Notes under the pieces: model-generated
Told to the model about the DNA's origin: nothing
Seen by the model: only the letters and a program-made list of their open reading frames with translations
The model's database searches: none
From: Patescibacteria group bacterium
Lineage (GTDB): Bacteria; Patescibacteriota; Patescibacteriia; Magasanikbacterales; GWA2-37-8
Direction: 5' to 3'
DNA length: 64,000 nt
NCBI GenBank assembly: GCA_028688375.1
Contig: JAQTYG010000001.1
Coordinates: 183,420 to 247,419, forward strand
Position numbers and translations under genes: made by a program
Shown: one piece after another, positions 2,256-24,217 of the stretch
Position numbering within the stretch: position 1 is the first letter of the stretch
Layout: each line of letters starts with the position of its first letter

Positions 2256-4166
2256 TTATTTTTTTACCGATAGATCTAACATGAAATTCTTACCATCATC
2301 ATATAATACTTTTCGGTTTTTGTATAATTCCATTAAATTATCTTGGAAATCAAAACTATGCTCAGTTTCGGCCCGAAGCCAGGGATTAACATGGACCCGC
2401 AACATGCCGCTGTTCGCCTCTTTGGTAAAATTAGCTTCATTGCCGTAGGAATAAGCCACATATTTCACCCCGACCGACAATAAATAATCGGCCATTTTTT
2501 CACTCCCTTCTCTAAAAGGCAACCCCGGCGGCAAACTGGACCCTCCGGGTAAATCAATTATAAAAATGTTATTCCTCTTAAAATCAAACAAGAAATTTCT
2601 GTCTAATCTGGCTAAAATAATTTCCTGAGGCGGCACAGAGTTTTGCAGACTTTTATATTGACCCAATTCCTCGGCGCTAATCATCTCCGTGTTCAACAGG
2701 CCGATTTTTACGCCATTATCAAAACTAATGTTCCTTTCAAATTCACCCTCCCAAACAATCGCCTTCTGAATATAAACACCGAGCATAAAAACGGCCACCA
2801 TCATGGCATAAATGGAATATTTACCAACGTCATTGAGGACGCTCTTGTTTTCTTTTAACAAAGAGACTAGGAGAATTAAAATGGTGGGCACGACAAAAGA
2901 AAATATATAATAACCCAGCGAATAAGCGCCGACACCATAAATCACAGCCGCGATACCGACTAAGGAACTGACAAAAATGCACAGCAACATCCGCCTGTTG
3001 ACGTTGGTATTTTTAAATGTCAAATAACCTAAAATAATAAGGGGTAAAGTAACATTCAAGCAAGCGAAAATTTCCACTGCGACCCTAATAATGCTATACA
3101 CGTTGAGGGTCAAGTGTGGCCCGGCAAAATTGCCGTAACTCGCGCCGTGATATCCCGCGCCCAAAAACGGATAAAATAAAGTACCGGAAGATTCAAGCAT
3201 GGAAATCATCCAGGGTACCAGGGCGACGGCAAAAAGCGCCAAAACTAACAACGCGTTAAGCAGAATAATTTTTTTATTCTGACGATAAAAAGTCAGGCAA
3301 AAAAAGCAGCAGAACAAGAAGGCCGCCGGAATAATTAGGTTTGTTTTAAGAACAACCAGAGCGGATACCGTCAAACAAAGAACGGCGGTCAATTGCGACC
3401 TGCTTAAATCCCGGGTAAAACACAGTATTCTAAAAATGGCAAAGAAGAAAGCCGCGGCCAATAAAAAGCAGGTTGCATTAACGCTCGGACTGGGTATGAT
3501 GGACACTAAAAAGATAATCAGCAAAGACGCGTTTTTATTTAATTTAGCGTCTTTAAAACATTCGAGTAACAATATTATCAGTAACAAGAGGCCGATGCCG
3601 TTATCCACCAAATGGAGATTTTTAAACGAAGCGAAAGATAACACGGTCGCGTTTAGCAGGTGGCCGCCGCCCAAAGATGGAGCTATTCTTCTCTCGCTAA
3701 AAGGATCCTCGCCTAAATGGCCGGTTTGAATCATCTTCGCCGGAAAAACCAAATAGCCGTGATAGTCGTCGCTCCCGTGAAAAGGAAAAAATGACACAGC
3801 CGTGGCGTATCTGGCTAAAATTATCAGAAAGACAACGGCCGCCACGGCGGCAAATTTTTTATTATTCTTAATAAAGGCCCAGACACCGATTAAATAACCG
3901 ACGGTTGTTTTTATATTTTTTATAAACAAACCAAGCGTTACCAATAAACCAAGAGACAAAAGGCTCCAAAGCGTTGTTCTTGAAATCATTTCAAAAAGAT
4001 TGAGGTAACCGCCGATAATCATAAAAATGGCCACGCCCAAAATAACATATAAACCGAAATCAAGACGCTTTTTATTAAAAAATAAAAAAGTTACTATCTG
4101 ACCAAGGCCGGCAAAAGCCAGGAGTAGCGCCAGGCCGGCGAAAAATACGAGGAAATATGATGACAT
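2256..4166 (-). CDS. Large polytopic membrane protein (at least 12 predicted TM helices) with a C-terminal soluble domain; possible glycan polymerase or membrane glycosyltransferase
   Basis: Translation is dominated by hydrophobic helices (FLVFFAGLALLLAFAGL, LYVILGVAIFMIIGGYL, etc.) and ends in a roughly 180 aa hydrophilic tail; lies inside the glycan cluster. Confidence 0.4.
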   Translation of the reverse strand: MSSYFLVFFAGLALLLAFAGLGQIVTFLFFNKKRLDFGLYVILGVAIFMIIGGYLNLFEMISRTTLWSLLSLGLLVTLGLFIKNIKTTVGYLIGVWAFIKNNKKFAAVAAVVFLIILARYATAVSFFPFHGSDDYHGYLVFPAKMIQTGHLGEDPFSERRIAPSLGGGHLLNATVLSFASFKNLHLVDNGIGLLLLIILLLECFKDAKLNKNASLLIIFLVSIIPSPSVNATCFLLAAAFFFAIFRILCFTRDLSRSQLTAVLCLTVSALVVLKTNLIIPAAFLFCCFFCLTFYRQNKKIILLNALLVLALFAVALVPWMISMLESSGTLFYPFLGAGYHGASYGNFAGPHLTLNVYSIIRVAVEIFACLNVTLPLIILGYLTFKNTNVNRRMLLCIFVSSLVGIAAVIYGVGAYSLGYYIFSFVVPTILILLVSLLKENKSVLNDVGKYSIYAMMVAVFMLGVYIQKAIVWEGEFERNISFDNGVKIGLLNTEMISAEELGQYKSLQNSVPPQEIILARLDRNFLFDFKRNNIFIIDLPGGSSLPPGLPFREGSEKMADYLLSVGVKYVAYSYGNEANFTKEANSGMLRVHVNPWLRAETEHSFDFQDNLMELYKNRKVLYDDGKNFMLDLSVKK

Positions 4167-4167
4167 A

Positions 4168-5103
4168 TTAATTTGGTTGAATTAGTTTAATAAAATTTTC
4201 GGCGCATTTACGGTCGATCAAATTTTCCCGCACATAATCACGCGCGGAAAAATTATCCAAACTATCCATAAAAATTTGTAAACGCTTTTTGAAATCGTCA
4301 GTACCGGAAAAAAACATTCCCGATCGCGCGCTTAAATACGGCGCGCTAATCACCGGATCGCGCCATCGATAGTGTTCGAACCGACAACTTCCGCCATTCC
4401 ATACGAGAGTCGGCACGTTTCTCGCCCAGGCCTCTTGCAGAGCCAATCCCTGGCTTTCCGATTCGGAAACATAGACCATGAATTTAGCTCCGGCCAGTAA
4501 TCTATGATAGTCTTTTTGTTTAAAATGTCCATAGGTAAGGACATCTATTTTAATGGGTAAATTCTTCAATTCTTTCAAAATATGGCCGGGCAATTTGTCA
4601 TCCGAACAATTCTTAAAATATACCACGGCGCCGACCCGGTCGGTTTCATTCAAATTTTCCGGTAAGGCCACTCCCGCCGGCCACACCTTAATTTTATCCG
4701 CTAAAAAAGGGCTGATTGATAAATAAAAATCTCTGACCCAATCGGATGGCTGTAATATCAAATCAATTTCCGGGGTGTTAATTATGCCGTTAAAATCATC
4801 GGGCCCCACGACTAGATTCGGCCCGGCCACCAATTTTTTAAATTTGCCCGCCTTTTTTTCTTTAATCGCCCACTGCAGTGCCACGATACTACCGTTCACA
4901 AAAACCGTATCCCCCGTTTTAATCTCTGCAATTTTAGGATTGATCAGATATGGATATTTTAATTCGTTTAAACCACGCAGCAAACTTCTCAGAACTGCTT
5001 CCGGCCCCCTATTTTTATTTAATAATTTTTTAATCACGCCACGATAGACTTCTTGAGAAAAAAATCCGGCGCTTGGTGATTTTGTTAAAATAATTAAAGA
5101 CAT
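4168..5103 (-). CDS. Glycosyltransferase, GT-B fold (GT4/GT1-like)
   Basis: C-terminal E-x7-E donor-binding motif ESESQGLALQEAWARNVPTLVW is typical of GT4 retaining glycosyltransferases. Confidence 0.5.
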   Translation of the reverse strand: MSLIILTKSPSAGFFSQEVYRGVIKKLLNKNRGPEAVLRSLLRGLNELKYPYLINPKIAEIKTGDTVFVNGSIVALQWAIKEKKAGKFKKLVAGPNLVVGPDDFNGIINTPEIDLILQPSDWVRDFYLSISPFLADKIKVWPAGVALPENLNETDRVGAVVYFKNCSDDKLPGHILKELKNLPIKIDVLTYGHFKQKDYHRLLAGAKFMVYVSESESQGLALQEAWARNVPTLVWNGGSCRFEHYRWRDPVISAPYLSARSGMFFSGTDDFKKRLQIFMDSLDNFSARDYVRENLIDRKCAENFIKLIQPN

Positions 5104-5122
5104 TTTGAGTGGCTCAAATAAA

Positions 5123-6193
5123 TTAGGCCCGCGATTTTTTAGTCTTACTTTTTACAAAATATCTAATTTTAAAATCTTCTAAAAATTTAATCATTTTAAA
5201 TGGACGATATAATCTCGCCAAAAATTTCTTTATGGCGTTTCGCCTTTTAATATATTTTGCTACAATTTTCTCGTATTTTTCCAATTCAACTGCTTTCGCG
5301 GGATTGATATTTCTCCGCCCGGCCGAATTAAACGGTTGATCTATGATGTGTTTTAAAAATTCCTCGAAACCCATTCTCACGGCGGCAAAATTATAGCCCG
5401 GTACAGTTACCGGCTCATTAATAATGCTCAAATATAAGTCATCATTATTATCGACTTCCTTAACTCGTTCTACTACTTGATCGAAAGTAGCATAACGGTG
5501 ACAATTGATAAAGCGTTTTTCGTTAAACTCTTTACCTATTTCAGGATTACCCCAATAAATCGGGATCGTTCTTGCCGCCAATGAACTAACTATTTTTTCT
5601 GTGGTATATCCAAAATTGGAAGAATTTTCGAAAGCAACGGAAAATTTATGTTTTGTCTCAAATTCTAATTTATTCTCCACTCTACGACCAATATTATTCA
5701 GACAGCGACCGCCAGCATTTACTTTTTTATAGTTACTTAGTTTATCGAAAAAAATTTTTCGGGCTGGACCGGCGAGATAATTTGAATAAACAAAACTGCA
5801 AAAATCCGTTTTCTTTAATAAATCCTGTTTAGTAAACCGATTCGTTTCTTTAAAATCGGTATCAATACCCAAAGCCAGCTCATCCCTGTGGTAAAAAACA
5901 TCTATTAAATACCACGGCAGCCTATAATATCTATCTCGAAAATTTAAATAATCATAGCCAACGGCGTAGTCACACAAATTAAAATTGGGGTGAACATTCT
6001 CTCCGGTATAAAATATTTTTATACAACCATCATATTTTAAGTGTTGAAAAGATGAATCATTAAAAAATACATATTCCGGTTTTTCTGAAAATTCAACATC
6101 GTAATATTTTTTTAATATTTTATAAATAAAATGCTCTCGTAACTCATCGTCGCGCTTATTAAATTCGCAAATTTTGATTCGAATTTTTTTCAT
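5123..6193 (-). CDS. Alpha-1,3-fucosyltransferase-like glycosyltransferase (GT10)
   Basis: HKFSVAFENSSNFGYTTEKIVSSLAARTIPIYWG matches the conserved GT10 FucT motif FxxAFENSxxxxYxTEK followed by the PVxxG block. Confidence 0.6.
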   Translation of the reverse strand: MKKIRIKICEFNKRDDELREHFIYKILKKYYDVEFSEKPEYVFFNDSSFQHLKYDGCIKIFYTGENVHPNFNLCDYAVGYDYLNFRDRYYRLPWYLIDVFYHRDELALGIDTDFKETNRFTKQDLLKKTDFCSFVYSNYLAGPARKIFFDKLSNYKKVNAGGRCLNNIGRRVENKLEFETKHKFSVAFENSSNFGYTTEKIVSSLAARTIPIYWGNPEIGKEFNEKRFINCHRYATFDQVVERVKEVDNNDDLYLSIINEPVTVPGYNFAAVRMGFEEFLKHIIDQPFNSAGRRNINPAKAVELEKYEKIVAKYIKRRNAIKKFLARLYRPFKMIKFLEDFKIRYFVKSKTKKSRA

Positions 6194-6194
6194 A

Positions 6195-7154
6195 TTATTT
6201 TATAATCGCGATAATTTGGTTCAAATATTTTTCGTCCCGGCACTCTTCGGGGTTGCGCTCGTTAATTTCATTAAAATATTTAAACGGCACTTTTACTTGT
6301 TTATCCGCTTTGCGCGAAAACATTTCATACTCCATATCTATGTGGCCGATATCAATCACGCGATACCCTAATTTAAACAAATCATAAGCCAAAACTTTAG
6401 CCGTAGGTCCCAATGAAATTAATATCAATTTATCTTTACCGATTTTTATTACCTCATTTTTTATGGCTTCATACTTATCGTAAGCGTCGGTTGGCGGACA
6501 CAATATCCGTTGCAAGGATTTAACATTATCAAATAAATTGTTCCCCACACCCAAACGGCTTTTCTCGCCTTCAATCAAAACCACATCCTTATCTTCCCAA
6601 ATGGAGAATAATTTTTTAAATCTTTCCGCGGCTTTGGATTTATCTTTGAACGCCAAATAAAAGCGCGTCATTCCGGTATTGCCATATGTTCGATCAAACG
6701 ATAACGCACTTTTCCAGGCCGGCCCGTATCTATATATATGATGTACGCCAAACCGATAAGCGTAATATTCCTGCCAATCCTGTCTTTCCCACATATCCGG
6801 AAGCGTAAATAAAAGGCCGTTAACATCGGTTTTTAAAATCATTTCCAACTTTGCCGCCAAATCGGCATCGTATCGTTGGAAACCTAAATCCAAACCGTCG
6901 ATCAAAGAAATCTCACCGTCGCCAAAGCGTATCACGGAGAGATTTTTCTGAATTATTAGATCAATGGTGTCATCCACTGACAATACACGGGGGCGTTTAC
7001 GATTCGGCCGAAAATAGATATTGAAATAATATAAAGCAAAAGCCAGACGCCAACCGATTATTTGGCGAATTTTTAACGGCGTGACGCCTCTTATTGTCTG
7101 AACAATTGATTGGATTAACGTTCTTTTCATAAAATACCCGGAACTTCTAATCAA
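6195..7154 (-). CDS. Putative glycosyltransferase (DUF1792/GT-D-like)
   Basis: RFGDGEISLIDG (DXE-containing) motif and about 320 aa size resemble GT-D/DUF1792 proteins; overlaps neighbours in an operon. Low certainty without an HMM search. Confidence 0.35.
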   Translation of the reverse strand: MIRSSGYFMKRTLIQSIVQTIRGVTPLKIRQIIGWRLAFALYYFNIYFRPNRKRPRVLSVDDTIDLIIQKNLSVIRFGDGEISLIDGLDLGFQRYDADLAAKLEMILKTDVNGLLFTLPDMWERQDWQEYYAYRFGVHHIYRYGPAWKSALSFDRTYGNTGMTRFYLAFKDKSKAAERFKKLFSIWEDKDVVLIEGEKSRLGVGNNLFDNVKSLQRILCPPTDAYDKYEAIKNEVIKIGKDKLILISLGPTAKVLAYDLFKLGYRVIDIGHIDMEYEMFSRKADKQVKVPFKYFNEINERNPEECRDEKYLNQIIAIIK

Positions 7155-7977
7155 AATCTTTTAACATTTTTTCCTTTAACACGCTGTAATTTCCCTCTAT
7201 TGATTCTAAAGAAATTCCTCTCTCCAATTCATACAATCTCGCGTAAGACATTAATCTGAAAAAGGAATAACTTAAAACAATAATCAAGCCCAGAGAGCCA
7301 TTTTTTAAACTTTTTCTATATATCCACCAATATCTGATCATGCCCGCCAACATTCTAAGAACACTAAACTTTTTACCGCGACGATACTTCTCCAGCGCTT
7401 CCTCCTCAGCATAGCGCCAGTGGCTACCGACAAACTTACCTATATTATAAACACTGAAATGCTTTAAAGCGAATTCTTCTTTATCCGGCAACTTCAAGAT
7501 TTGCTTTTTAGTGCCTAAAAATTTCCCCATGCCGTGGATATTATTCTGACTGTAGTCCATAAAATCTTTATGGTAAAAGAAGGGCGAATATCCTTTATGC
7601 GCGTAATGTCGCGTATTGCCCCAAAGATAGGTATAAAGCGGGATCAGCACCATTTTTACTTTATTCTGCATCGAAATTTCCGTCAGTTTTTCTAATAAAC
7701 TTTTCGGTGCCAAATTATCAACATAGCCCCAATAAATCCAATCGGTCTGAATTTTTCTTTTAATAAATTCGAAATTTTCTTGTGTTTCCACCTGAGGCTT
7801 GTCACTGAACGGACGCAAAACAAACTGCGCCCCGGCCTTTTCGCATAGTTCCTTAGTTTGGTCGGTGCTACCGCCATCCAAAACGATAACCGCCCCATAA
7901 TTTTTAAGGTTCCTGATAGCGTATAAAATTCTTTTCTCTTCGTTGCGCGCGAAAAGCACAAAAGTAATATTACTCAT
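7147..7977 (-). CDS. Glycosyltransferase family 2
   Basis: N-terminal ITFVLFARNEEKRILYAIRNL...VLDGGSTDQT GT-A fold signature (DGGSTD = DxD-type motif). Confidence 0.65.
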   Translation of the reverse strand: MSNITFVLFARNEEKRILYAIRNLKNYGAVIVLDGGSTDQTKELCEKAGAQFVLRPFSDKPQVETQENFEFIKRKIQTDWIYWGYVDNLAPKSLLEKLTEISMQNKVKMVLIPLYTYLWGNTRHYAHKGYSPFFYHKDFMDYSQNNIHGMGKFLGTKKQILKLPDKEEFALKHFSVYNIGKFVGSHWRYAEEEALEKYRRGKKFSVLRMLAGMIRYWWIYRKSLKNGSLGLIIVLSYSFFRLMSYARLYELERGISLESIEGNYSVLKEKMLKDFD

Positions 7978-7981
7978 AAAG

Positions 7982-8884
7982 TTAGTTAAAAATATCGCGA
8001 AAAAAATCTACCGTTTGACGGAATCCTTCGCGCCAATTAGTAGCGGCTTGCCAATCAATTTTTTTATTATTTGACAAATCCGCGTGAGAATCCATTATTT
8101 CATCTTTTCGGTAGTCCAATTTACCGAATTGTAAAGACGTTCCACTGTTCGTAATTTCTTTCAAATATTCCACGGCTTCCTTAATAGAAACAGAGCCGCC
8201 GCTGCCGATGCCGAATTCTTCAAAATTTGATAAATTGCTTTGGTGGGTATGCGCGTTAAAAAACGCTTGAGCCACATCGTTAACGAACACGAAGTCGCGT
8301 TTTTGTTCACCGTTTGTTAACGGAATATTTTCAACTTCATTCAACAACTCTTTAACAATGGAGGGGACAAATTTTTTCAGGCCATCATTCGGTCCATACA
8401 TCTGTTCTATTCTTAAATTAAAAAATTTCATTTTGAGATATCTCGTGGCGCGTTTCGCAATGACTAAAAAATTTTTCTTAGTTTCAACATAATAATTTTC
8501 GTTATTCTCAAAAAGTATTTTTTCGTTAAAAAAAGTGTCGGCATTTATAAAACAGCCCACCTTCGCTTTTTCGCCAGCTACTAAAAGGCGGAGGGGAAGA
8601 AGTAAATTTGCTTCTGCTATCTCCGACCACGCCTCCCTCTCCCTGCCATAACAGGTGGCTACGTGAATAATAGTACTGACATCGTATTGGGAAAAACATT
8701 TTTCCACCTCAAATTTATCTAAAGATACCACAACTAACCCAGGGTGATTGGCAAACTTTTTAAGACGCGACGACGAAGAATCGTCGCGAGCCAAAATAAC
8801 CGTGCGATAGCCGTTGGCCAAAAATAATTCCACTATTTTCGAACCAAGGAAGCCGGTGCCGCCAGTTATTAAAATGGTTTGCAT
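7982..8884 (-). CDS. NAD(P)-dependent epimerase/dehydratase family (extended SDR)
   Basis: Rossmann motif ILITGGTGFLGSKIV at the N-terminus and YVETKK catalytic YxxxK. Confidence 0.65.
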   Translation of the reverse strand: MQTILITGGTGFLGSKIVELFLANGYRTVILARDDSSSSRLKKFANHPGLVVVSLDKFEVEKCFSQYDVSTIIHVATCYGREREAWSEIAEANLLLPLRLLVAGEKAKVGCFINADTFFNEKILFENNENYYVETKKNFLVIAKRATRYLKMKFFNLRIEQMYGPNDGLKKFVPSIVKELLNEVENIPLTNGEQKRDFVFVNDVAQAFFNAHTHQSNLSNFEEFGIGSGGSVSIKEAVEYLKEITNSGTSLQFGKLDYRKDEIMDSHADLSNNKKIDWQAATNWREGFRQTVDFFRDIFN

Positions 8885-8893: not shown

Positions 8894-9778
8894 TTATTTT
8901 CTTAATCCAATTACTCGTAAAGTGGCCTTGGCTAATTCTTTAAAGGCTACCCAGCAACTGTGCCACAAAAAAAACGCCTCTACTCGATAACGCGGTATAT
9001 CTAAGTCGTAAAAATCGCTGATCCATAGAATACTTTTAATAGTCGCGCGGTTACGCTTTAAATTGGTTTCCAACCCCGTATACGAATCCCAGCGCAAGTT
9101 GTCATTTCGTGTTTTGATTAATGGCTCCGCTAATAACGCAAACCTGCTATCTTTAAAAACATTTAACAAAATAAAAAAATGAACAATGTTGGTGCCAATA
9201 AAAATTTCTTTATTGGCAAAATTTGTCCAAGCTTTTCGGAAAAAAAGCTGCGTAGACATGCTGCTAAAAAATCCCACTAAATCCATATAATTTTTAATGG
9301 ATTTAACAAAATCTGACAAATTGGGATAGACGATATCTTGAGTGATCTGATGATTAGGGAAGGGTAGGACGGGGTTTTTCAGCCAATGGTCATAGCCCCA
9401 ACAATTAAGCATGAGGTACGGAGCTCTGATCGTTTTAATTTTTTGAATTATGACTGAAAAACTTTCCGGGAAAAAAGCGTCGTCGTCGCCAATGGTTAGA
9501 CAATATTCTCCCGAACTTTTCTCTACTGCTTTTAATAAATTGCGATCAAAACCTATATTTTTTTCATTTCTAAAAAATTTAATATTACTAAATTTCTTTT
9601 GGAAACTTTCTACCAGGGAGGCGGTTCCGTCCGTACTGGCGTTGTCGCAAATCACAACTTCGACCTGTTCGAACAGATCTCTGTCTTTAAACTGAGAAAC
9701 GATACTTTCTAAATTTTCTTTTAGGCACTCCGCCCGATTAAGGGTGGGTATACAGATGCTTAAGACCGGATTTTCCAT
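8894..9778 (-). CDS. Glycosyltransferase family 2
   Basis: LSICIPTLNRAECLKENLESIVSQ...VVICDNASTDGT is a classic GT2 N-terminus. Confidence 0.75.
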   Translation of the reverse strand: MENPVLSICIPTLNRAECLKENLESIVSQFKDRDLFEQVEVVICDNASTDGTASLVESFQKKFSNIKFFRNEKNIGFDRNLLKAVEKSSGEYCLTIGDDDAFFPESFSVIIQKIKTIRAPYLMLNCWGYDHWLKNPVLPFPNHQITQDIVYPNLSDFVKSIKNYMDLVGFFSSMSTQLFFRKAWTNFANKEIFIGTNIVHFFILLNVFKDSRFALLAEPLIKTRNDNLRWDSYTGLETNLKRNRATIKSILWISDFYDLDIPRYRVEAFFLWHSCWVAFKELAKATLRVIGLRK

Positions 9779-14928: not shown

Positions 14929-14930
14929 AA

Positions 14931-15759: not shown

Positions 15760-16833
15760 TTATTCGCCGAAATATTCCGCGATCTGGCTGTCCGTAAATT
15801 TACTCGGATCTTCTTTCCCGCCATAAAATTTCTCATACCAACTAAAAGTCTTTTCCAAACTCTGGGTCAAACTCCACTTAGGATGCCAGTCTAATAAAAT
15901 ACCCGCCTTGCTCGCGTCTAATTTAAGCAAATTAGCTTCATGCTTAGAGGCATCTTCAGCAACTTCGAAAACGCCTTGTTGTAATATGGAAATGCCTTTT
16001 TCGACTAATTCTTCAACACGCACGAGGCCGTCCTCTCCGGGACCAAAATTCCAGGCGCCGGACAAGTCTCCATGACCGACAAACATTTTTTTGCCAAGCA
16101 ACAAATAACCGCCCAGCGGTTCTAACACATGTTGCCACGGTCTAACCGCTTTAGGATTTCTAATTATCACCGATTCTTTACGCTCAAAAATTGCTCTAAC
16201 CATATCAGGAATCAATCGATCTCTGGCCCAATCACCCCCGCCGATAACATTGCCGGCTCTGGCGACAGCCACTAAAGTGTCGTGCTTTTGGCCAAAGTCG
16301 CTTGGATTAAAAAACGATCTTATATAGGAGCTCGTCACAATGTCCGCCGCGGCCTTACTCGCACTATATGGGTCATAACCCCCAAGCGCATCCGTTTCTT
16401 TATAAGGATAGTCCTGCTCTTTATTTTCATAAACTTTATCAGTGGTAATAATTACTGCCGATTTCACTCCGCCGGCTTCTTTAATCGCCTGTAAAATATT
16501 AGCCGTACCAATAATATTGGTGGAGAAGGTGGCTAGCGGGTCATCGTAGCTATCCCGAACAATTGGCTGAGCCGCCAGATGAAAAACTATTTCCGGTTTT
16601 TCTATCTCAAAAATATTCTTGATTTTGTTAAAATCACGGATATCGGTAAAATAATTTTTCTTTATTTTTCCAGCCAATTCTAATGTTTCAAACAAGTTAG
16701 GCGCAGTGTCTGGCGGTAAAGAAACACCGACGACTGTCGCGCCCCAATTGACAAGAATCCGGGTTAACCACGAACCTTTGAATCCCGTGTGACCGGTGAT
16801 TAAGATTTTTTTACCACAATAAAATTCTTTCAT
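15760..16833 (-). CDS. rfbG: CDP-glucose 4,6-dehydratase
   Basis: FYCGKKILITGHTGFKGSWLTRILVNWGATVVGVSLPPDT is the hallmark RfbG/DdhB N-terminus; 357 aa. Confidence 0.8.
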   Translation of the reverse strand: MKEFYCGKKILITGHTGFKGSWLTRILVNWGATVVGVSLPPDTAPNLFETLELAGKIKKNYFTDIRDFNKIKNIFEIEKPEIVFHLAAQPIVRDSYDDPLATFSTNIIGTANILQAIKEAGGVKSAVIITTDKVYENKEQDYPYKETDALGGYDPYSASKAAADIVTSSYIRSFFNPSDFGQKHDTLVAVARAGNVIGGGDWARDRLIPDMVRAIFERKESVIIRNPKAVRPWQHVLEPLGGYLLLGKKMFVGHGDLSGAWNFGPGEDGLVRVEELVEKGISILQQGVFEVAEDASKHEANLLKLDASKAGILLDWHPKWSLTQSLEKTFSWYEKFYGGKEDPSKFTDSQIAEYFGE

Positions 16834-16843: not shown

Positions 16844-17635
16844 CTAATCCCAAATTTTCCAAAAAGGGTCCTTATGCCAATGTTCGTTCATTTCCTCAAC
16901 TTCTTTATGCGTATCCATGCACTTCCATTTTCCGTCATGACAAAAGACAGATAATTGGCCGGATTTAGCCAGTTTTGGGAATACGCTTTCAATCATGCTA
17001 TCCGGTTCGATCATATCCAATACCTCTCGCTTAAAAACCATAAAACCGCCGTTAATCAAATTTTTTTCCGCGGAGGGCTCCTCTTCAGCGGTTACTTTAT
17101 GTTGAGAAAAATCAACCACTTTCTTGGCCTCACGATCGATATCTAAATAGCCAAAACGGCTAGCCGGTCGAACCGCAGTTATGGTGGCAATAGTATTTTG
17201 GTTTTGATGAAATTTTACTAATTCGGGTATATTTACATCCGCCACCCCATCCCCATAAGTAACCATAAAATAATCGTCGGAGCCGATATAGTTTTTTAAA
17301 CGTCTAATTCTTTCACCGGTTAAACTATCCGTACCGGTTTCAGCGAACACTATCCTAAAGTCATCGCAATCATTGTTGTGGAATGTCGTAGCGCCGGTTT
17401 TAGTATCAAGTGTAAAATCGTTCACAAATGCCCGCCAGTTCAAAAAATAATCTTTAATCATGTTGCTCTTGTAGCCGAGCGCTAAAATAAAATCATTAAA
17501 GCCGTAATGCGCGTATATCTTCATGATATGCCAAAGGATCGGCTTTCCGCCGACTTCCACCAAAGGCTTGGGTTTAAATTCCGTTTCCTCCTTCATACGA
17601 GTGCCCGTGCCGCCACAAAGTATAATGGTTTTCAT
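16844..17635 (-). CDS. rfbF: Glucose-1-phosphate cytidylyltransferase
   Basis: MKTIILCGGTGTRMKEETEFKPKPLVEVGGKPILWHIMKIY is the hallmark RfbF/DdhA N-terminus; 263 aa. Confidence 0.8.
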   Translation of the reverse strand: MKTIILCGGTGTRMKEETEFKPKPLVEVGGKPILWHIMKIYAHYGFNDFILALGYKSNMIKDYFLNWRAFVNDFTLDTKTGATTFHNNDCDDFRIVFAETGTDSLTGERIRRLKNYIGSDDYFMVTYGDGVADVNIPELVKFHQNQNTIATITAVRPASRFGYLDIDREAKKVVDFSQHKVTAEEEPSAEKNLINGGFMVFKREVLDMIEPDSMIESVFPKLAKSGQLSVFCHDGKWKCMDTHKEVEEMNEHWHKDPFWKIWD

Positions 17636-18516
17636 ATGATAGATAACTTCTTTTTAATAAATAAATTAATATTTTTTATCATTATGATCAAGCCAATGAG
17701 CGCTCTGTTGAATACGAATAATGTGCTTGTTCTTTGGTGCAAATATTTTATTTTTAAATTATCCAAATGCGTATAGCTCAACCTTAATTGCCAAATATAC
17801 TGTTCTGAAGAACGGTTGTTCTCGCCATGATACAAATCTAACGGCTGAATCTTGACTTCATTATTAAAATATTTTCTAAAAAATATATTTACTAGAGTCA
17901 TATCGTGTCGAAAAATCTCGCAATCTCTACTAAATATATTTTTATCCTTACCTTTATTTCTCCACTGATCGTTTGGTGAAAAACCAAGAGCCAGGCCCGC
18001 TCGAGCTGAATCGTAAATTTTTTTAAATATTTCGCTAATCCTGGGAGTGTTTTTAAAACCAATTATGCCCGCGTGAACTACAGTTAGACCATCATACCGT
18101 TCATCCAAATCAAAAATCGATTTATAACTGGTTGGCACAATTTTTTTAAACAATTGTTCTTGATCAATCAAAAGCACGTCTTCCTGTTCAATGACGGAGA
18201 AAACCTCGTCTAATGATCTTAAAACTTGGCACCCAGCATCGAGATAAAAATTTAACCGCGCTAAAGGATGGGCAAAAATATAGGCCTTCCAAGTATAGCA
18301 GCCTCGCCAATGATGGCAAAATTCCGGCATTTTTACTACCTTGACATTATCAACCGACTCAAGTTCTCGGCGAAAAATCGGCAATAAGCCGAGGTCATAA
18401 ACAAAAATAGTCGGGTGATTCGGATAAATCAATTTTATCGAGGATAACAAATTTATTACTGAGGGAAAAAATTTGTTTGAAGCAGAAGTTATAATCGCTT
18501 TTTCTAACATAAACAA
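17632..18516 (-). CDS. Hypothetical protein, possibly a nucleotide-diphospho-sugar transferase-like glycosyltransferase
   Basis: ATGA overlap with rfbF start (translational coupling); no confident motif. Confidence 0.3.
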   Translation of the reverse strand: MFMLEKAIITSASNKFFPSVINLLSSIKLIYPNHPTIFVYDLGLLPIFRRELESVDNVKVVKMPEFCHHWRGCYTWKAYIFAHPLARLNFYLDAGCQVLRSLDEVFSVIEQEDVLLIDQEQLFKKIVPTSYKSIFDLDERYDGLTVVHAGIIGFKNTPRISEIFKKIYDSARAGLALGFSPNDQWRNKGKDKNIFSRDCEIFRHDMTLVNIFFRKYFNNEVKIQPLDLYHGENNRSSEQYIWQLRLSYTHLDNLKIKYLHQRTSTLFVFNRALIGLIIMIKNINLFIKKKLSII

Positions 18517-18526
18517 TTTTTTAGAA

Positions 18527-19873
18527 TTACTTGAAAAACATCCCTCTCAAAATTAAAACGCCCTGTCTCCGTGTTGATTTAAATAAAAGGGCGCAAAAAG
18601 GAATGAGGGAATAAGAAATCAGAGTGGCAAAAGCCGCGCCGTTAATCCCGAACCGGGGAATGAAAATAAAATTCAATACAATATTAATCGTCATGCCCAG
18701 TAAATTTATTAAAAAAGATATTTTTGTCTTTTTTTCTCCGATTAAAGCCTGGTTAAGGACCGTGCTTATCGCCACGGCGATGCCGGCCCAAACATAAATC
18801 GACAGAACCGCGGCAGCGGATAAATAATTTTGACCGTAAGCGATTTGGATGATTATTTTAGAAAATAGCGCCATCGGTACCACAAAAATTAAAGACAGAT
18901 AAAACGCTAAACCATATAATCGAGAGAGTCTTTCCTCGTATCTTTCATGGCTAACTGCAACCGCGTTAAGCACCGCTGGAAAAATCGATCCGACGATAAT
19001 AGTGGGAAAAAAATACCATAATTCTGATAAGCGAACCGCCACATCGTAAAATCCGACCGCCGCATTGTCTAAAAGATGTTTGATCATCACCTGATCGATT
19101 CTGGAAAAAATACCCGCGAAGGCAGAGGAAAAAATTAACGGCCAAGAATGCGCTAACAAATCTTTACAGGTTTGTCCGGAAAATTTCCAACTAAATTGAC
19201 CTAATTTATTTCCAACAAAGATAATTACATAGCCTATGGCGTAAAAAACGCTTTCTAAAAAGAAAATGGCGACAAAATAAATCAAATCAAATTTTAAATA
19301 AACGCAGAAAATTTTAAGTGCGGACAAAACCAGACTAACAACTAAGGAGGTGATCACCACCGGTTTGGAAAAAACTTTGGCTTGAAAAAAAGTATTGATT
19401 ATGCCGAAAGACTGAAAGATAAAAGACAAGGAGACGATAAAAATCAAAAAATTAGTATAAAAATCATTGTGATTAAATAAAAAAGTAATTAAAACCAAAA
19501 CGATAGTTAGACAGGCGCCCATTATTTTAAGAACAAAAGCGGACCCCATCAATTCTTTCTTTTTCTCCGGCTCTTTAATTAAATCAACATACAGTATGGC
19601 TTCAATCCCCAAGCCGGCTAAAAAAGAAAATAGGCCAACATAACTAATGACATAACTTACCAAACCATATTTATCCGGACCCAAAGAGCGCACGATATAT
19701 ATATTTACCAAAAAAGCCACGGCGCTAGCCAAAACTTTACCAATCAGATTCCAACCGCTATTAGAAAAATAGCGTTTTAAACCCTGCGATCTCAATTCGA
19801 ATAACCAGCTTTCCGGTAAAAAAAAGCGCGCTATTTTTTTAACAAGTAATTTAATTGGCTTGACAATATTCAT
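18527..19873 (-). CDS. Polysaccharide biosynthesis protein / Wzx-like flippase (MOP superfamily)
   Basis: 448 aa with about 12 TM helices, N-terminal KR-rich cytoplasmic segment; typical Wzx architecture and cluster context. Confidence 0.6.
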   Translation of the reverse strand: MNIVKPIKLLVKKIARFFLPESWLFELRSQGLKRYFSNSGWNLIGKVLASAVAFLVNIYIVRSLGPDKYGLVSYVISYVGLFSFLAGLGIEAILYVDLIKEPEKKKELMGSAFVLKIMGACLTIVLVLITFLFNHNDFYTNFLIFIVSLSFIFQSFGIINTFFQAKVFSKPVVITSLVVSLVLSALKIFCVYLKFDLIYFVAIFFLESVFYAIGYVIIFVGNKLGQFSWKFSGQTCKDLLAHSWPLIFSSAFAGIFSRIDQVMIKHLLDNAAVGFYDVAVRLSELWYFFPTIIVGSIFPAVLNAVAVSHERYEERLSRLYGLAFYLSLIFVVPMALFSKIIIQIAYGQNYLSAAAVLSIYVWAGIAVAISTVLNQALIGEKKTKISFLINLLGMTINIVLNFIFIPRFGINGAAFATLISYSLIPFCALLFKSTRRQGVLILRGMFFK

Positions 19874-19889
19874 AAATATTTTCCACGAT

Positions 19890-20825
19890 TCACTTTTGTT
19901 GTTTTAAAAAATATTCAATGGTTTTCTTTAAACCGTCTTCAAAATTAACAACCGGTTGCCACCCTAAGTACATTTTGGCTTTGGTGTTATCCAGCCGATT
20001 ACGCAACATCTCGCCGGGTCTATCCGGATTATATTCCGGGACAGCCTCGGGCTTCCCTAACAAGTCGGCGATTTTTTTATATAAAACATTCAGACTAATT
20101 TCATTGCTGTTGCCTAAATTAAATATCGGAATAATTTTCTCATCGCTCTCATAATCTAAAGCCAATAAATTAGCTCTTATCACGTCCCCGACATAAGTAT
20201 AATCTCTAGTCTTGGTGCCGTCGCCATAAATAGCCGCTCTCTTCCCGACATTAATAGACCGGATGTAATCAGCCATCGCGCCTCCCGTTTGACGCGGACC
20301 AAAAATGGTGGCAAATCTAAAAATTACGCAATTTAGCCCAAAAACATGACTATAAAATTGGACATAATTTTCTACGGCAAATTTTGAAATGATATATGGG
20401 TTATCCGGCATCACGGGCTCTGTTTCTTTGGTCGGTAAATTATTGGTGTTGCCATAAACAAAACCGGTGGAAGAAAAAATCACCTTCTTGGCTCCATACT
20501 GTTTTGAAAACTCCAGAGTTTTCAAACTACCCGTGATGCTACGAGAATCAAATATCGGATCTTCTACAGATTTTGGCACATTGGTATTGAAACCGAACAT
20601 ATACACAATCTCCGGCCGTTCTTTTTTAAAAACGTCTTCAAAATTTGGGTCATTCATATCTAATTCGTAAAACTCGGCTTTCAAATTTATGTTTTCGCGC
20701 TTGCCGGTGCTCAAATTATCAACCACGACGACTTTCGCTCCTTTCTCCAACAGAGCGTCTACCAAATGCGAACCGATAAATCCGGCTCCTCCGGTAACTA
20801 AAATTGTCTTGTTCTCTAAATTCAT
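19890..20825 (-). CDS. NAD-dependent epimerase/dehydratase (GalE/UDP-sugar epimerase-like SDR)
   Basis: ILVTGGAGFIGSHLV Rossmann motif and YIISK catalytic motif; 311 aa. Confidence 0.65.
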   Translation of the reverse strand: MNLENKTILVTGGAGFIGSHLVDALLEKGAKVVVVDNLSTGKRENINLKAEFYELDMNDPNFEDVFKKERPEIVYMFGFNTNVPKSVEDPIFDSRSITGSLKTLEFSKQYGAKKVIFSSTGFVYGNTNNLPTKETEPVMPDNPYIISKFAVENYVQFYSHVFGLNCVIFRFATIFGPRQTGGAMADYIRSINVGKRAAIYGDGTKTRDYTYVGDVIRANLLALDYESDEKIIPIFNLGNSNEISLNVLYKKIADLLGKPEAVPEYNPDRPGEMLRNRLDNTKAKMYLGWQPVVNFEDGLKKTIEYFLKQQK

Positions 20826-20827
20826 AA

Positions 20828-21487
20828 TTATTTTTTTCTAAACACTGACAATGAATCCTGAACTTCTAAAAATTCTAACGCCGGACTATTTTTTAATTCA
20901 GCAACTAACTTAATCGGTCCGGGCCAACCAATGAACCCGCCCGGTATAGTGGATGTCACCGGCGCGGAATCGTGAAAAGCCACCGTACCGCCTGACTGTA
21001 ATAAAGGAAACCATTGTAAAAAATCCTGTCTAACCGCTTCGTAGGTATGATCGCCATCGATAAAAATAAAATCGAATGGCTGTCGCCAGTTTTTCACCAC
21101 ATTAAAACTATAATCTTTAAAAAAATAAAATTTCGGATAAAAATTTAGGTTTTGCTTTATTTTTTCTTCATTTCCGATTAACCTCTCGTTCATACTGTCT
21201 GGAATAATCGGGTCAATTCCGTAAATGGGCGCTTGGGCCACTTTCGCCATTTCACGGGTGGTTAGGCCATCTAAAACACCTACCTCTACGATACCCACCC
21301 TCGCAATACAGGCATATTTTTGTAAAGTTTTCACTTCTAAATCAGTACTGAAACGATTGCCTTCTTTCGGGGTTTTGGGGAACAAACCCAGCCTAGTTTT
21401 AACCACATTTTTTATCACATGCGCAAACAGGCGCGGGTTACGCTTTAAAATATCAATTTTGTCTATAATTTTTTCTTTCAAATTCAT
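20828..21487 (-). CDS. Class I SAM-dependent methyltransferase (TylF/CmcI-like O-methyltransferase fold)
   Basis: VGVLDGLTTREMAKV and DFIFIDGDHTYEAVRQDF ... VAFHD resemble macrocin-O-methyltransferase-like family members. Confidence 0.5.
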   Translation of the reverse strand: MNLKEKIIDKIDILKRNPRLFAHVIKNVVKTRLGLFPKTPKEGNRFSTDLEVKTLQKYACIARVGIVEVGVLDGLTTREMAKVAQAPIYGIDPIIPDSMNERLIGNEEKIKQNLNFYPKFYFFKDYSFNVVKNWRQPFDFIFIDGDHTYEAVRQDFLQWFPLLQSGGTVAFHDSAPVTSTIPGGFIGWPGPIKLVAELKNSPALEFLEVQDSLSVFRKK

Positions 21488-21497
21488 AAGCGATTTT

Positions 21498-22565
21498 TTA
21501 ATACAATCTCAGCCGTATCAATATCCATTTCAACGGCAATTTAATGTACTTAGAAATAAAATGAACACCAAAGGCCAAATGTCGTTTTCGATTGGTGTAA
21601 TATTTTTTTATAGCACTTTGCTTTTCTTCGGGCGAAATTGTGATGCCGGGTACTAAAAACGGACGCGATAATTTTAAACGGTAATATTCTTTTGATTCAC
21701 GAAATTGCCCCAAAAATATCTCGTGTTTTTTGTAAAGATAATGTACGTTGCGTGCATAAATTGCTTCAAGTCCCGGAGTACCGGTTGTTTTATTATGCAT
21801 AGTTCCCCATTCAACCTCGGATTGAAATTTTAAGGCGAACACATAATTACGCAATCCCGCCTCAAGACAACGCAATGAAATATCATGACAAGACCAACCA
21901 ACCGGAGCCAACTGTTCATCCATAATTCCAATTTTATTTACGACTTCGCATGATAAGCACTGCGGACTGCCGATCGCCACCATGCGTTCAATCATTTCAT
22001 GCGGCGATAAAGGAATTGGGGACATGCCGGTGCCGTAAGCGCTTTCAATAATATTCCGCTCTTCAATTACCGGCTTTCTGCTTCTAAAATATTCACAAAT
22101 TTCCGGTCTGTCTTTTAAATAAATATTTACTCCGTGTCGGAAACCGAGATAACCAATATTAGAATATCCAAAATGATTATAAATTTTGAAAACCAAATTT
22201 TCCAAATCATAATCTTTTATTATTACATCATCCTGCACAATGATATTACACCCCGGCTCATTCTGCGACGCCGCGCGCAATCCGGCATTAATCTTTCTAA
22301 GTTCATGCACATCGGGAGTCAAAACTTTTGTAATTGGAACTTGGGGGTTCTTTTGAATAATTTCATCTATAATTTTTTCTGTATCATCCGTAGGACGGTC
22401 AAATACCGGATAAATATAACTATTTTCTTTACAACAAGCAAGAACCCCCTCCAAAACTTTGCCGATAAGCTCTTCCTTGTTGTGGATTGTAATAATGTAA
22501 TTAAATCGAAAATTCTTCACATTGATAGATAATAAATATTTTAATTGTGAATTGATATTTACCAA
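21498..22565 (-). CDS. Hypothetical protein, possible GT2-like glycosyltransferase
   Basis: N-terminal pattern YIITIHNKEELIGKVLEGVL...FDRPTDDTEKII resembles GT-A N-termini; weak. Confidence 0.3.
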   Translation of the reverse strand: MVNINSQLKYLLSINVKNFRFNYIITIHNKEELIGKVLEGVLACCKENSYIYPVFDRPTDDTEKIIDEIIQKNPQVPITKVLTPDVHELRKINAGLRAASQNEPGCNIIVQDDVIIKDYDLENLVFKIYNHFGYSNIGYLGFRHGVNIYLKDRPEICEYFRSRKPVIEERNIIESAYGTGMSPIPLSPHEMIERMVAIGSPQCLSCEVVNKIGIMDEQLAPVGWSCHDISLRCLEAGLRNYVFALKFQSEVEWGTMHNKTTGTPGLEAIYARNVHYLYKKHEIFLGQFRESKEYYRLKLSRPFLVPGITISPEEKQSAIKKYYTNRKRHLAFGVHFISKYIKLPLKWILIRLRLY

Positions 22566-22810
22566 TCCTTTGTTTTCTCAATGGTTTTCATTTTAACTTT
22601 TTGATAGATATCTGTGGCCCTCACATCAATTTCCGACGAAAGCATTTTTAATAATTCGTGACCCAAAATACGATATTGCTTACCGATTTTATTTGCCTTG
22701 AGCAGGCCGCTTTTCAACATCCGTTTAACCGTACTTTTACTCACCTTGAGAAGGCGTTCGGTTTCTACCGGTGTATATACTTCATTTGGCTTAATTTCCA
22801 TATTCTGCAA
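22559..22810 (-). CDS. Helix-turn-helix DNA-binding protein (excisionase/MerR-like HTH_17 family)
   Basis: 83 aa; ETERLLKVSKSTVKRMLKSGLLKANKIGKQYRI matches the excisionase-family HTH; embedded in the glycan operon with a 7 nt overlap upstream. Confidence 0.55.
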   Translation of the reverse strand: MQNMEIKPNEVYTPVETERLLKVSKSTVKRMLKSGLLKANKIGKQYRILGHELLKMLSSEIDVRATDIYQKVKMKTIEKTKDW

Positions 22811-22827
22811 TATCTATAATCGCATAT

Positions 22828-23697
22828 TTAAACCATTTGGCCGCGAATAATTGCTAAATTGTGTTCCAAATTATTGAAATTAAAATCAAACTTTTCTACC
22901 GCTAATTTATTAATCGTGGAACAATTCATCGGGCGCTTCGCAATTTGACCGAGCGATTTCGTGCCAACCGGCACGAGCAAATTTTTATCCCAACCAAAAT
23001 AATCACAAATTTTTACGGCGAAATCATATCGTCCGAATATTTCATTGCCAGTAGCGACAAATTTACCGACGACATCACTGGCTATGGCTTTTTTTATTAG
23101 ACGACACAAATCTAGAACAAAAGTCGGATTGCTGATTTGGTCAGTCATTATTCGCATGGCTTTTCCATCTTTCATATTACGATATAATTGCATAAAAAAA
23201 TTCATACCATCCGGGTCCCAGCCGTAAATAACCGTTGGCCTAAATATGATGTAATTTTTTAAAGCGGACACGATTTTTTCCCCTTCAACTTTCGTTTCGC
23301 CGTAATACTGCGCGGGATTAACCGCGTCATTTTCATCATAGCCGCCTTTCTTCCCGTCATAAACGTAATCGGATGAAATGTAAATTATCTTTTTATCGTG
23401 GTGCGCCGACCAAGCGGCCAGTATTTTTGTCGGCAAGACGTTGCACTTGTCCGCGAGCTCTTTTTCCATTTCGCATTTTTCCACATTAGACAAAGCCGCG
23501 AGGTGAACGATGACATCGGGTTGAAAACCATCTAAGATGTTTTTCAGAGCCGCCCTGTCGCTCACGTCAATCACTTTATCCACGAATTCGTTTTTTACGA
23601 TATCTATTCCGCAAATTTCAAAATCCGGCTTCAAAATTGAATAAAGATTTTTGCCGACAAAACCGCCGGAGCCGGTAATTAAAATCTTTTTACTCAT
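22828..23697 (-). CDS. rfbD: dTDP-4-dehydrorhamnose reductase-like (RmlD family SDR)
   Basis: KILITGSGGFVGKNL; 289 aa; adjacent to a cupin 3,5-epimerase. Confidence 0.65.
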   Translation of the reverse strand: MSKKILITGSGGFVGKNLYSILKPDFEICGIDIVKNEFVDKVIDVSDRAALKNILDGFQPDVIVHLAALSNVEKCEMEKELADKCNVLPTKILAAWSAHHDKKIIYISSDYVYDGKKGGYDENDAVNPAQYYGETKVEGEKIVSALKNYIIFRPTVIYGWDPDGMNFFMQLYRNMKDGKAMRIMTDQISNPTFVLDLCRLIKKAIASDVVGKFVATGNEIFGRYDFAVKICDYFGWDKNLLVPVGTKSLGQIAKRPMNCSTINKLAVEKFDFNFNNLEHNLAIIRGQMV

Positions 23698-24217
23698 ATT
23701 TTATTTCCCAGTTATAGGGAATTTCTTTTGAAAACGGGTCCATTCTTTTTATTTCGTCCGGAGAATGGGGATGAGTGGCACAGTTAGCGACAATCGCCTC
23801 TTCAACGCCGATACCTTTGAAACCGTTCCAAACACCTGGCGGAATTGCCACCAAACTATAATTTTTATCACCAATGAATATCACTTGTAATTCGCCTTTA
23901 GTCGAAGAATCTTCCCGCGCGTCAAACAAAACGACTTTGATATTGCCCTTAACCACCGCGTAATTTAACGTCATTTCCGTATGCAGATGCCAACCCTTGA
24001 CTACCCCTGGATATACGGTAGAAAAATACATTTCACCAAATTGCTTAAATTCCGGGTCAGTGACTTTGAGCATATGCATAATGCTGCCACGTTCATCGGC
24101 AATCTTACGCAAAGGTTTAATAATAACTCCGTCTATCATATTTATTGTATTAATGTGATTAAAAGCCCAATAATTTGAATAAAAAATGACACATAGATAG
24201 TCTAACAGAGGTGTCAT
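23690..24217 (-). CDS. rfbC: dTDP-4-dehydrorhamnose 3,5-epimerase-like (RmlC cupin)
   Basis: MIDGVIIKPLRKIADERGS...YFSTVYPGVVKGWHLH matches the RmlC family; true start is probably the internal Met at 24139 (protein starting MIDGV), because the upstream extension is hydrophobic nonsense. Confidence 0.7.
   Translation of the reverse strand: MTPLLDYLCVIFYSNYWAFNHINTINMIDGVIIKPLRKIADERGSIMHMLKVTDPEFKQFGEMYFSTVYPGVVKGWHLHTEMTLNYAVVKGNIKVVLFDAREDSSTKGELQVIFIGDKNYSLVAIPPGVWNGFKGIGVEEAIVANCATHPHSPDEIKRMDPFSKEIPYNWEIKYE

Follow-up and report, generated by a model that had tools for sequence, protein, structure and literature searches.

An AT-rich surface-glycan locus in a Magasanikbacteria-related bacterium, probably diversified by cassette exchange at a conserved site

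We investigated a stretch of 64,000 nucleotides (hereafter the window, numbered from its first letter) of a Patescibacteria group bacterium (GCA_028688375.1, contig JAQTYG010000001.1, positions 183,420 to 247,419 of the forward strand), which contains a large cluster of genes for the biosynthesis of a surface glycan. The cluster comprises 28 genes or more and covers at least 28.5 kb, from position 28511 to past the left end of the window. It includes an AT-rich part that an earlier note, made from the sequence alone, had delimited as 2256-24200 and regarded as a horizontally acquired island of the O-antigen or S-layer-glycan type. Its right limit is the divergent housekeeping gene TsaE (28623..29078, plus strand; Pfam TsaE, E 3e-40), and all cluster genes given below are on the minus strand.

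The first gene (26361..28511) encodes a polytopic membrane protein with about 11 transmembrane (TM) segments in a TM scan, a Wzy_C domain (Pfam, E 1e-20), as occurs in O-antigen ligases, O-oligosaccharyltransferases and polymerases, and a C-terminal TPR region, which is weak here (TPR_19, E 0.002) and clear in the orthologue of a related locus (L089, TPR_19 37.6 bits). A promoter-like site is found upstream of this gene at 28552-28524. It is followed by gmd, encoding GDP-mannose 4,6-dehydratase (25283..26347; TIGR01472, 584 bits, above the cut-off), and by fcl, encoding GDP-L-fucose synthase (24321..25277; NF047922, 485.6 bits, slightly below the cut-off of 500). The first AT-rich gene encodes an RmlC-like cupin resembling sugar-nucleotide 3,5-epimerases (23690..24217; Pfam dTDP_sugar_isom, E 9e-12, and FdtA; far under the rmlC cut-off), and the next an RmlD-like 4-keto-sugar reductase (22828..23697; Pfam RmlD_sub_bind, E 2e-55; TIGR01214, 187.9 bits, below the cut-off of 224). 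An apparent gap of 262 nt (22566-22827) is filled by the gene of an 83-aa excisionase-type DNA-binding protein of the HTH_17 family (22559..22810; 36.9% GC; Pfam HTH_17, E 2.7e-11, 44 bits; TIGR01764, 31 bits; both above the cut-off). The Wzy_C, gmd, fcl and HTH_17 genes form a conserved anchor, to which we return below. A 126-aa minus-strand open reading frame overlapping the start of the Wzy_C gene (28475-28855) was rejected as a spurious antisense of TsaE, and its tblastn "homologues" in relatives are due to the conservation of TsaE.

Past the HTH_17 gene there are a GT2-family glycosyltransferase (GT2d, 21498..22565; Pfam Glycos_transf_2, E 8e-7), a class I S-adenosylmethionine (SAM) methyltransferase (Methyltransf_24, 20828..21487; Pfam, E 2e-16), a sugar-nucleotide epimerase/dehydratase of the short-chain dehydrogenase/reductase (SDR) type (19890..20825; Pfam Epimerase, E 2.4e-52, under the specific NCBIfam cut-offs) and a Wzx-type flippase of the MOP family with about 13 TM segments (18527..19873; Pfam Polysacc_synt, E 4e-30, with weak Wzx matches in NCBIfam). 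A 294-aa protein with a gene GC of 34% (17632..18516) shows a weak Pfam match to DUF1647 (E 0.001) and none in a PDB sequence search; it is possibly a soluble glycosyltransferase. Three genes point to a CDP-dideoxyhexose branch: an RfbF-like glucose-1-phosphate cytidylyltransferase (16844..17635; TIGR02623, 276.9 bits, slightly below the cut-off of 300.25), the CDP-glucose 4,6-dehydratase RfbG (15760..16833; TIGR02622, 467.9 bits, above the cut-off) and the CDP-6-deoxy-D-xylo-4-hexulose 3-dehydrase RfbH, or E1 (11802..13115; NF011936, 671 bits, above the cut-off).

Between rfbG and rfbH lie a thiamine pyrophosphate (TPP) enzyme similar to transketolases and split in two (13993..15743; N half 14931-15743, C half 13993-14928; Pfam Transketolase_N, Transket_pyr and Transketolase_C), whose best PDB match is the split-chain transketolase 6yak (E 6e-64), and an SDR reductase/epimerase (13124..14005; Pfam Epimerase, E 2e-23; 34.8% GC). 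A second, full-length transketolase is encoded in the backbone (49248-51491). Next to rfbH, a cobalamin-dependent radical SAM C-methyltransferase similar to TokK, CysS and KedN5 is encoded (9832..11784; Pfam B12-binding and Radical_SAM; KedN5 family, 278 bits, below the cut-off), with PDB matches to TokK (7kdx, E 1.6e-106) and CysS (E 4e-50). The cluster continues with GT2c (8894..9778; Pfam, E 1.4e-24), another SDR epimerase/reductase (7982..8884; Pfam Epimerase, E 3e-30), GT2b (7147..7977; Pfam, E 1e-7), a GT-D fold glycosyltransferase of the SP_1767 family (6195..7154; Pfam GT-D, E 1e-83; TIGR03728, 315.8 bits, above the cut-off), a GT10 alpha-1,3-fucosyltransferase (FucT, 5123..6193; Pfam FucT_N and Glyco_transf_10), which is the most AT-rich gene with 32.4% GC, and a 311-aa, weakly GT1-like protein (4168..5103; Pfam Glycos_transf_1, E 3e-5, below the cut-off).

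The next gene (2256..4166) encodes a 636-aa membrane glycosyltransferase with the GT-C fold: its N-terminal module is polytopic (about 13 TM segments), its first external loop has the conserved acidic residues, its C-terminal domain is external, and D133-D134 are invariant. The WWDYG motif of the STT3, PglB and AglB oligosaccharyltransferases does not occur in its C-terminal domain. There was no assignment to a family in the copies of Pfam and NCBIfam searched, and a PDB sequence search gave nothing useful. A full profile search collected 2,622 clusters at 50% identity for this GT-C family. Adjacent to it are a class I SAM methyltransferase (Methyltransf_23, 1351..2253; Pfam, E 1.7e-27) and two tandem GT2 paralogues similar to polyprenyl-phosphate sugar synthases (3..1337; Pfam GT2), the one complete (546-1337) and the other partial, leaving the window (3-536). 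Their best NCBIfam likeness is to AglJ, PpgS, dolichyl-phosphate hexose transferase and ArnC, all below the cut-off, and they share a 300-nt repeat with 83% identity (22-321 and 823-1122). Two short contigs with the GT-C protein were found in independent short-read Logan assemblies of the same organism, and both end at this tandem GT2 repeat. An Rfam search gave no match within the cluster.

The compositional claim of the earlier note was confirmed in its essentials. GC is 0.386 in 2256-24200, while it reaches 0.479 in 24201-37900 and 0.485 in 42135-64000, the two segments of the window that served as backbone reference in place of a complete genome. Lines of 60 nt with less than 30% GC, said to be many, make up 60 of 365 (16%) in the AT-rich stretch and 12 of 592 (2%) across both backbone segments. 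Mean GC per gene is 0.387 for 21 island genes and 0.481 for 20 backbone genes, with lower values at all three codon positions (GC1 0.434 vs 0.522, GC2 0.327 vs 0.381, GC3 0.401 vs 0.540); the difference is significant for all GC measures (Mann-Whitney, p <=2e-4), with p of about 1e-6 to 5e-7 for GC and GC3. Unsupervised binary segmentation in 100-nt bins places the strongest single change point at 24,200, so the right edge of the island stands, and GC within the window is not uniform at the level of this segment. Position 2256, on the other hand, is a mere gene border: the region to its left (1-2255) has an intermediate GC of 44%, and glycan genes run on to position 1 and past the left end of the window.

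Other details had to be revised. The GC of 50-55% that had been attributed to fcl, gmd and the housekeeping genes was overstated, since fcl has 44.4%, gmd 48.1% and the remaining backbone genes about 39 to 53% (mean 48%); the Wzy_C gene has 44.0%. The stretch holds 22 genes, including the HTH_17 gene, and not about 25; all are on the minus strand. They are tightly packed, with a spacing of mostly -13 to +19 nt, one interval of 53 nt and another of 103 nt between the cupin gene and fcl. Being on a single strand is not peculiar to the AT-rich stretch: the minus strand carries nearly every protein gene between 1 and 57,043, with TsaE as the one confirmed exception.

A sharp step at 24,200, a deficit of 9-10 points and a shift of GC1, GC2 and GC3 together would be expected if a block of 22 kb from a low-GC donor had recently been inserted beside the native gmd and fcl and had not yet ameliorated. 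The low GC of FucT (32%), below that of its 70%-identical orthologue in the related locus L093 (38.5%), also fits such an event, as does an excisionase-type HTH gene within the cluster. Among related loci, a metagenome scan with the Wzy_C protein gave five (L087-L091), and others came through MgsA, GT-C and RfbH.

The AT offset is not confined to the window. Backbone and variable-part GC are 0.463 and 0.390 in L087, 0.403 and 0.337 in L088, 0.451 and 0.364 in L089, 0.448 and 0.378 in L090, 0.430 and 0.347 in L091, 0.363 and 0.316 in L085, and 0.489 and 0.391 in the window. This corresponds to a deficit against the own backbone of 6.6-8.7 points in L087-L091, 4.7 in L085 and 9.8 in the window. 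The GC of orthologues follows the host: rfbH, the B12 radical SAM gene, GT2b, GT2c, the GT1-like gene and the GT-C gene of the window are 6-9 points above their copies in a Magasanikbacteria genome (CG10). Since six other genomes show the same deficit and the GC of orthologues goes with that of the host, we interpret low GC as a lasting property of the locus and not as proof of recent import. Both observations weigh against a recent insertion, and they are also what would be expected if there had been no transfer at all, the locus being inherited vertically and AT-rich by itself, for instance through relaxed codon selection in genes of low expression, the amino acid usage of membrane proteins and glycosyltransferases, or mutation that is locally biased. 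In favor of vertical inheritance are, in addition, the AT-richness of the conserved HTH_17 anchor gene and the low GC that O-antigen, capsule and S-layer glycan loci are generally described as having (PMC2943079). The shift of GC1 and GC2 besides GC3 argues against it.

Wzy_C orthologues with 46-56% identity open the locus in L087-L091 and in L010. The most complete order is seen in L089, with a homologue of the 717-aa protein of the window, MgsA (76% identity), QueH (70%), divergent TsaE (60%), Wzy_C (56%), gmd (75%), fcl (71%) and HTH_17 (80%); L087 and L091 show Wzy_C-gmd-fcl-HTH_17, and L010 has MgsA-QueH-Wzy_C before the contig ends. In L087, L089 and L091, gmd comes directly after the Wzy_C gene with 75-81% identity, fcl has 71-77% identity, and an HTH_17 homologue stands straight after fcl (80% in L089, 73% in L087 and 58% in L091). 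The locus thus sits at a conserved chromosomal site, MgsA-QueH-TsaE, with a conserved anchor and a downstream gene set that varies. The HTH_17 gene marks the start of the variable part, and its product may be a locus regulator or the gene a homology anchor for cassette exchange. As a conserved component of the locus in relatives, it is not a relic of a mobile element, which counts against a recent island. The RmlC-like/RmlD-like pair between fcl and HTH_17 is present only in the window, with no counterpart in L087, L089 and L091, and this does favor a recent acquisition.

Past the anchor the gene sets diverge. L089 and L091 have Wzm/Wzt ABC export (with a Wzt_C domain), other glycosyltransferases and distant split-transketolase genes (40% and 27% identity), whereas Wzx and another gene set are found in the window. 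In L087-L091 the site is always filled by a different glycan gene set, a pattern of replacement and not of insertion or deletion. Parts of the cluster of the window recur elsewhere. L083/L093 have a block in common with it at 46-78% identity, mostly 63-78%, containing rfbH (71%), GT2c, GT2b, GT-D (78%), FucT (70%), the GT1-like gene, GT2a, GT-C (66%) and the methyltransferase; where the window has the split transketolase and the B12 radical SAM enzyme, these loci have a TPP enzyme of the YerE type and a SAM C-methyltransferase. The CG10 Magasanikbacteria locus (L092 and L085), of more than 30 kb, contains rfbH (75%), a YerE-type enzyme, the B12 radical SAM gene (72-74%), GtrA, a 917-aa protein and a GT-C homologue (40%). 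The GT1-like gene adjoins the GT-C gene in L083 and L085, and the Methyltransf_23 gene after the GT-C gene is kept in L083 and in another contig (P0005). A protein labelled P0025, said to carry PF26626, gave no match in our local Pfam copy.

Vertical inheritance without transfer does not easily account for anchors 71-80% identical that are followed by unrelated gene sets, in which even the export system differs (Wzx vs Wzm/Wzt), nor for modules that appear in different combinations in L083/L093, L085/L092 and the window. We consider it unlikely. A recent horizontal acquisition we regard as somewhat less likely still. A glycan cluster occupies the same site in every relative examined, and we found no integrase, transposase, tRNA or long flanking direct repeat in 1-28511; scans for repeats, promoters and terminators revealed no island-boundary signal over background. 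The cargo genes also show no foreign affinity in lists of identities, which were used without trees: all named best homologues of RfbH belong to Patescibacteria/Magasanikbacteria (up to 77% identity), all those of FucT to Patescibacteria lineages (55-71%), and all those of the GT-C protein to Patescibacteria. The best-homologue identities in the cluster (71-77%) are similar to that of the backbone protein MgsA (78%), and these homologues come from the same candidate lineage. The conserved site and anchor, the absence of mobility genes in that region and these homologues do not support a foreign island.

We favor, as the probable explanation, that the AT-rich stretch represents the serotype-like, variable portion of a large surface-glycan locus, diversified by cassette exchange within a generally low-GC gene pool of the candidate phyla radiation (CPR), in which the loci of relatives have 30-46% GC, with a persistent locus-specific AT offset, rather than a recent foreign insertion or a lipopolysaccharide (LPS) O-antigen cluster. 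Recombination would be the mechanism of exchange. The description of a glycan-biosynthesis locus with mosaic composition is supported by gene content and base composition, with the GDP-fucose genes gmd and fcl in the conserved part, nearer to the backbone, and the AT-rich part exchangeable.

Several points weigh against this explanation. The HTH_17 anchor gene is itself AT-rich, with 35-41% GC in four genomes, so that low GC alone is no marker of exchanged DNA. The left end of the cluster lies past the window, and the genome was read over 64 kb only. The relatives compared stand at the distance of a genus or a family, where little synteny is left in general, and none is a strain of more than about 90% identity. 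No priming phosphoglycosyl transferase was found in 1-28511, no E3 reductase partner for RfbH (RfbI/AscD-type) in the window, and no acceptor protein for the glycan, such as an S-layer protein or pilin, in the window. RfbF and fcl are slightly under their curated cut-offs, and for the lack of LPS in the host we rely on what is generally known of CPR bacteria. With regard to priming, sister loci have Bac_transf or Glycos_transf_4 genes at their distal ends. A scan of contigs with MgsA detected no homologue of the cluster within 10 kb of this gene in other Magasanikbacteria loci; as it reached only distant relatives (up to 78% identity) with little synteny, it is a weak test of presence or absence.

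The host is a Patescibacteria (CPR) bacterium related to Candidatus Magasanikbacteria: the closest homologues of its MgsA among species-representative genomes are in metagenome-assembled genomes of this group, with up to 78% identity. CPR/Patescibacteria are known to lack LPS and an outer membrane. This bears on the possibility that the cluster is a classical LPS O-antigen cluster, in which the Wzy_C protein would be a WaaL ligase that acts on lipid A-core. In its repertoire the cluster resembles an O-antigen locus, with nucleotide-sugar genes, glycosyltransferases and Wzx/Wzy or ABC export in one cluster; the Wzy_C domain is present, the protein has a marginal match to the WaaL structure 7tpg (E 0.013), and the NCBIfam name for RfbH is "lipopolysaccharide biosynthesis protein". 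However, the window contains peptidoglycan genes and no lipid A or core genes, the host belongs to a group known to be devoid of LPS, and the combination of Wzy_C and TPR fits the O-oligosaccharyltransferases WsfB and PglL. We consider an LPS O-antigen cluster very improbable, and with a host of this group a protein would be the likeliest acceptor. Of the two locus types proposed at first, a strict O-antigen is thus unlikely, and an S-layer glycan locus is the better analogue because of the WsfB/PglL-like architecture of the putative transferase and the GC of 30-43% of S-layer clusters.

From the gene set, a pathway can be proposed in which the sugar structures, the order of steps and the acceptor are all conjectural. 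Gmd and Fcl would produce GDP-L-fucose in the cytoplasm, with the GT10 FucT as its likely user, while RfbF, RfbG and RfbH would produce CDP-3,6-dideoxy-4-keto-hexose. To this keto sugar the split transketolase-like enzyme may add a two-carbon branch, by analogy with YerE and with transketolases proposed for the biosynthesis of two other sugars. In yersiniose biosynthesis the acceptor of the TPP-dependent YerE is CDP-3,6-dideoxy-4-keto-hexose, and transketolases have been proposed to attach hydroxyacetyl branches to keto sugars in the miharamycin and amipurimycin pathways (PMC12247030). The match with the YerE acceptor and the proposed transketolase branching make it plausible that the split transketolase, the adjacent SDR, which would reduce the branched sugar, and the TokK-like B12 radical SAM enzyme, which would methylate it on carbon, together make a C-branched, C-methylated dideoxyhexose. 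Several SDRs and the RmlC-like/RmlD-like pair could act as terminal enzymes of the CDP-3,6-dideoxyhexose route. The GT2, GT10, GT-D and GT1-like transferases and two SAM methyltransferases would then assemble the oligosaccharide on a polyprenyl carrier, and Wzx would flip the lipid-linked glycan across the membrane. Outside the membrane, the GT-C enzyme may decorate it with a polyprenyl-phosphate sugar supplied by GT2a, and the Wzy_C/TPR protein would transfer or polymerise the glycan onto a surface acceptor, most likely a protein.

The occurrence of a TokK/CysS-like cobalamin enzyme (9832-11784) in a glycan cluster of a CPR bacterium, with a 72-74% identical copy in the CG10 locus, is an observation in its own right. 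Being a member of the CPR, the host is presumably unable to make cobalamin itself.

A low-GC layout on one strand with a variable center is familiar from O-antigen, capsule and S-layer glycan loci, and the locus is ordinary in kind. The S-layer glycan (slg) and protein O-glycosylation clusters of Geobacillus stearothermophilus NRS 2004/3a and Paenibacillus alvei CCM 2051T are, like the one described here, tens of kb long, on one strand and tightly packed. They also have nucleotide-sugar genes, glycosyltransferases, methyltransferases, Wzx or Wzm/Wzt and a Wzy_C-TPR transferase (WsfB, PglL). In Gram-positive bacteria such clusters have 30-43% GC, below that of the genome and lowest in the strain-specific center, with overlapping open reading frames (PMC2943079). 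The window differs in that it has no identified S-layer or target gene and, in its visible part, no primer of the WsaP or WecA type, in the CPR host, and in having in addition the GT-C enzyme, the B12 radical SAM methylase and a CDP-dideoxyhexose branch that includes a split transketolase.

The O-antigen (rfb/wb*) and capsule loci of enterobacteria are alike in their fixed site, conserved 5' genes, replaceable AT-rich center and alternative Wzx/Wzy or ABC-transporter pathways at one locus, and the RfbF/G/H dideoxyhexose genes of the window match those of Salmonella and Yersinia. Their anchors are different, however (galF/gnd or JUMPstart vs Wzy_C/TPR-gmd-fcl-HTH_17), the window has no E3 gene, and LPS is not expected. 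In the yersiniose A pathway, which leads through YerE and YerF to a CDP-3,6-dideoxy-4-C-(1-hydroxyethyl)-hexose, the acceptor of YerE is what RfbF/G/H of the window would supply. The TPP enzyme and SDR between rfbG and rfbH are also yersiniose-like, and a YerE-type TPP enzyme is at the equivalent place in L083/L093 and L092; in the window, by contrast, it is a split transketolase and not of the YerE/acetolactate-synthase type, accompanied by a TokK-like B12 radical SAM methylase. Pairs of a polyprenyl-phosphate sugar synthase and a GT-C enzyme are known from ArnC/ArnT, PpgS/Rv3779 and GtrB/GtrC, from which the GT-C protein of the window differs in having no family in the Pfam and NCBIfam copies that were searched. 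A GtrA-type flippase gene was not seen in the window, while the sister locus L085 has one.

Outside the cluster and unrelated to it, there is a second AT-rich segment (37545-42134, 37.6% GC) immediately 3' of tRNA-Glu(CTC) (37162-37234). Its genes code for an unknown 126-aa protein, an M78 (IrrE-like) peptidase, an SH3+CHAP amidase, a GmrSD_N+HNH nuclease, an EcoRI-type adenine methyltransferase and a Hypoth_Ymh protein, and it has the appearance of a defence or mobile island beside a tRNA. The 3' end of tRNA-Glu (37218-37236) is found again as an exact 19-nt copy at 37449-37467, resembling the scar of an att site. Long GC-rich intergenic stretches (36111-37195 and 42135-42469) flank this segment and contain short palindromic or repeated motifs, e.g. 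GGCGGGAATGACAGG and CCTGCCGGCAGGCAGG. In 31016-36110 there are two large proteins without a confident family. The 717-aa protein has homologues of 30-33% identity beside MgsA in L001, L020 and L089. The 842-aa protein, 5 kb from the cluster, is secreted, with an N-terminal hydrophobic segment, a weak sub-threshold match to an Ig-like Pfam family and an unusual GC by codon position, GC1 being lower than GC2. It may be a surface protein, without a link to the glycan cluster. At 57043/57046 gene orientation switches between MurB (minus) and an ATP-grasp/NUDIX gene (plus), 2 nt apart, and the cumulative GC skew has its minimum at the same place, about 57,040. An inversion may end here, or the strand switch may be related to replication. 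The only Glycos_transf_4 gene of the window (59677-60810), considered as a priming transferase, was rejected, being MraY.

The host-tracking GC deficit in seven genomes is a caution against taking low GC as proof of recent foreign import. The host context raises the interest of the locus, as CPR surface biology is almost unexplored, and literature searches on CPR glycan islands gave nothing specific. A host with a very reduced genome spends at least 28 kb on one surface glycan, and the same site is diversified among relatives, a sign that the cell surface is under strong diversifying selection, by phages or by host contact. The cluster is also of interest for its GT-C family, still unassigned in the Pfam and NCBIfam copies searched, and for RfbF/G/H, the split transketolase and the TokK-like B12 radical SAM enzyme as a candidate route to a new branched sugar. 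As a tentative and bolder proposal, to which we give a minor chance of being correct as a whole, Magasanikbacteria, which are ultra-small and probably host-dependent, may keep a serotype-switching locus made of a fixed Wzy_C/TPR-gmd-fcl-HTH_17 anchor and interchangeable Wzx or ABC cassettes, which can occupy about 3% of a genome of about 1 Mb. The cassette found here would direct the synthesis of a fucosylated glycan with a previously undescribed C-branched, C-methylated 3,6-dideoxyhexose, made by the split transketolase and the TokK-like enzyme and finished extracellularly by the uncharacterised GT-C family. If this is true, such a glycan would be a main determinant of host attachment and phage susceptibility.

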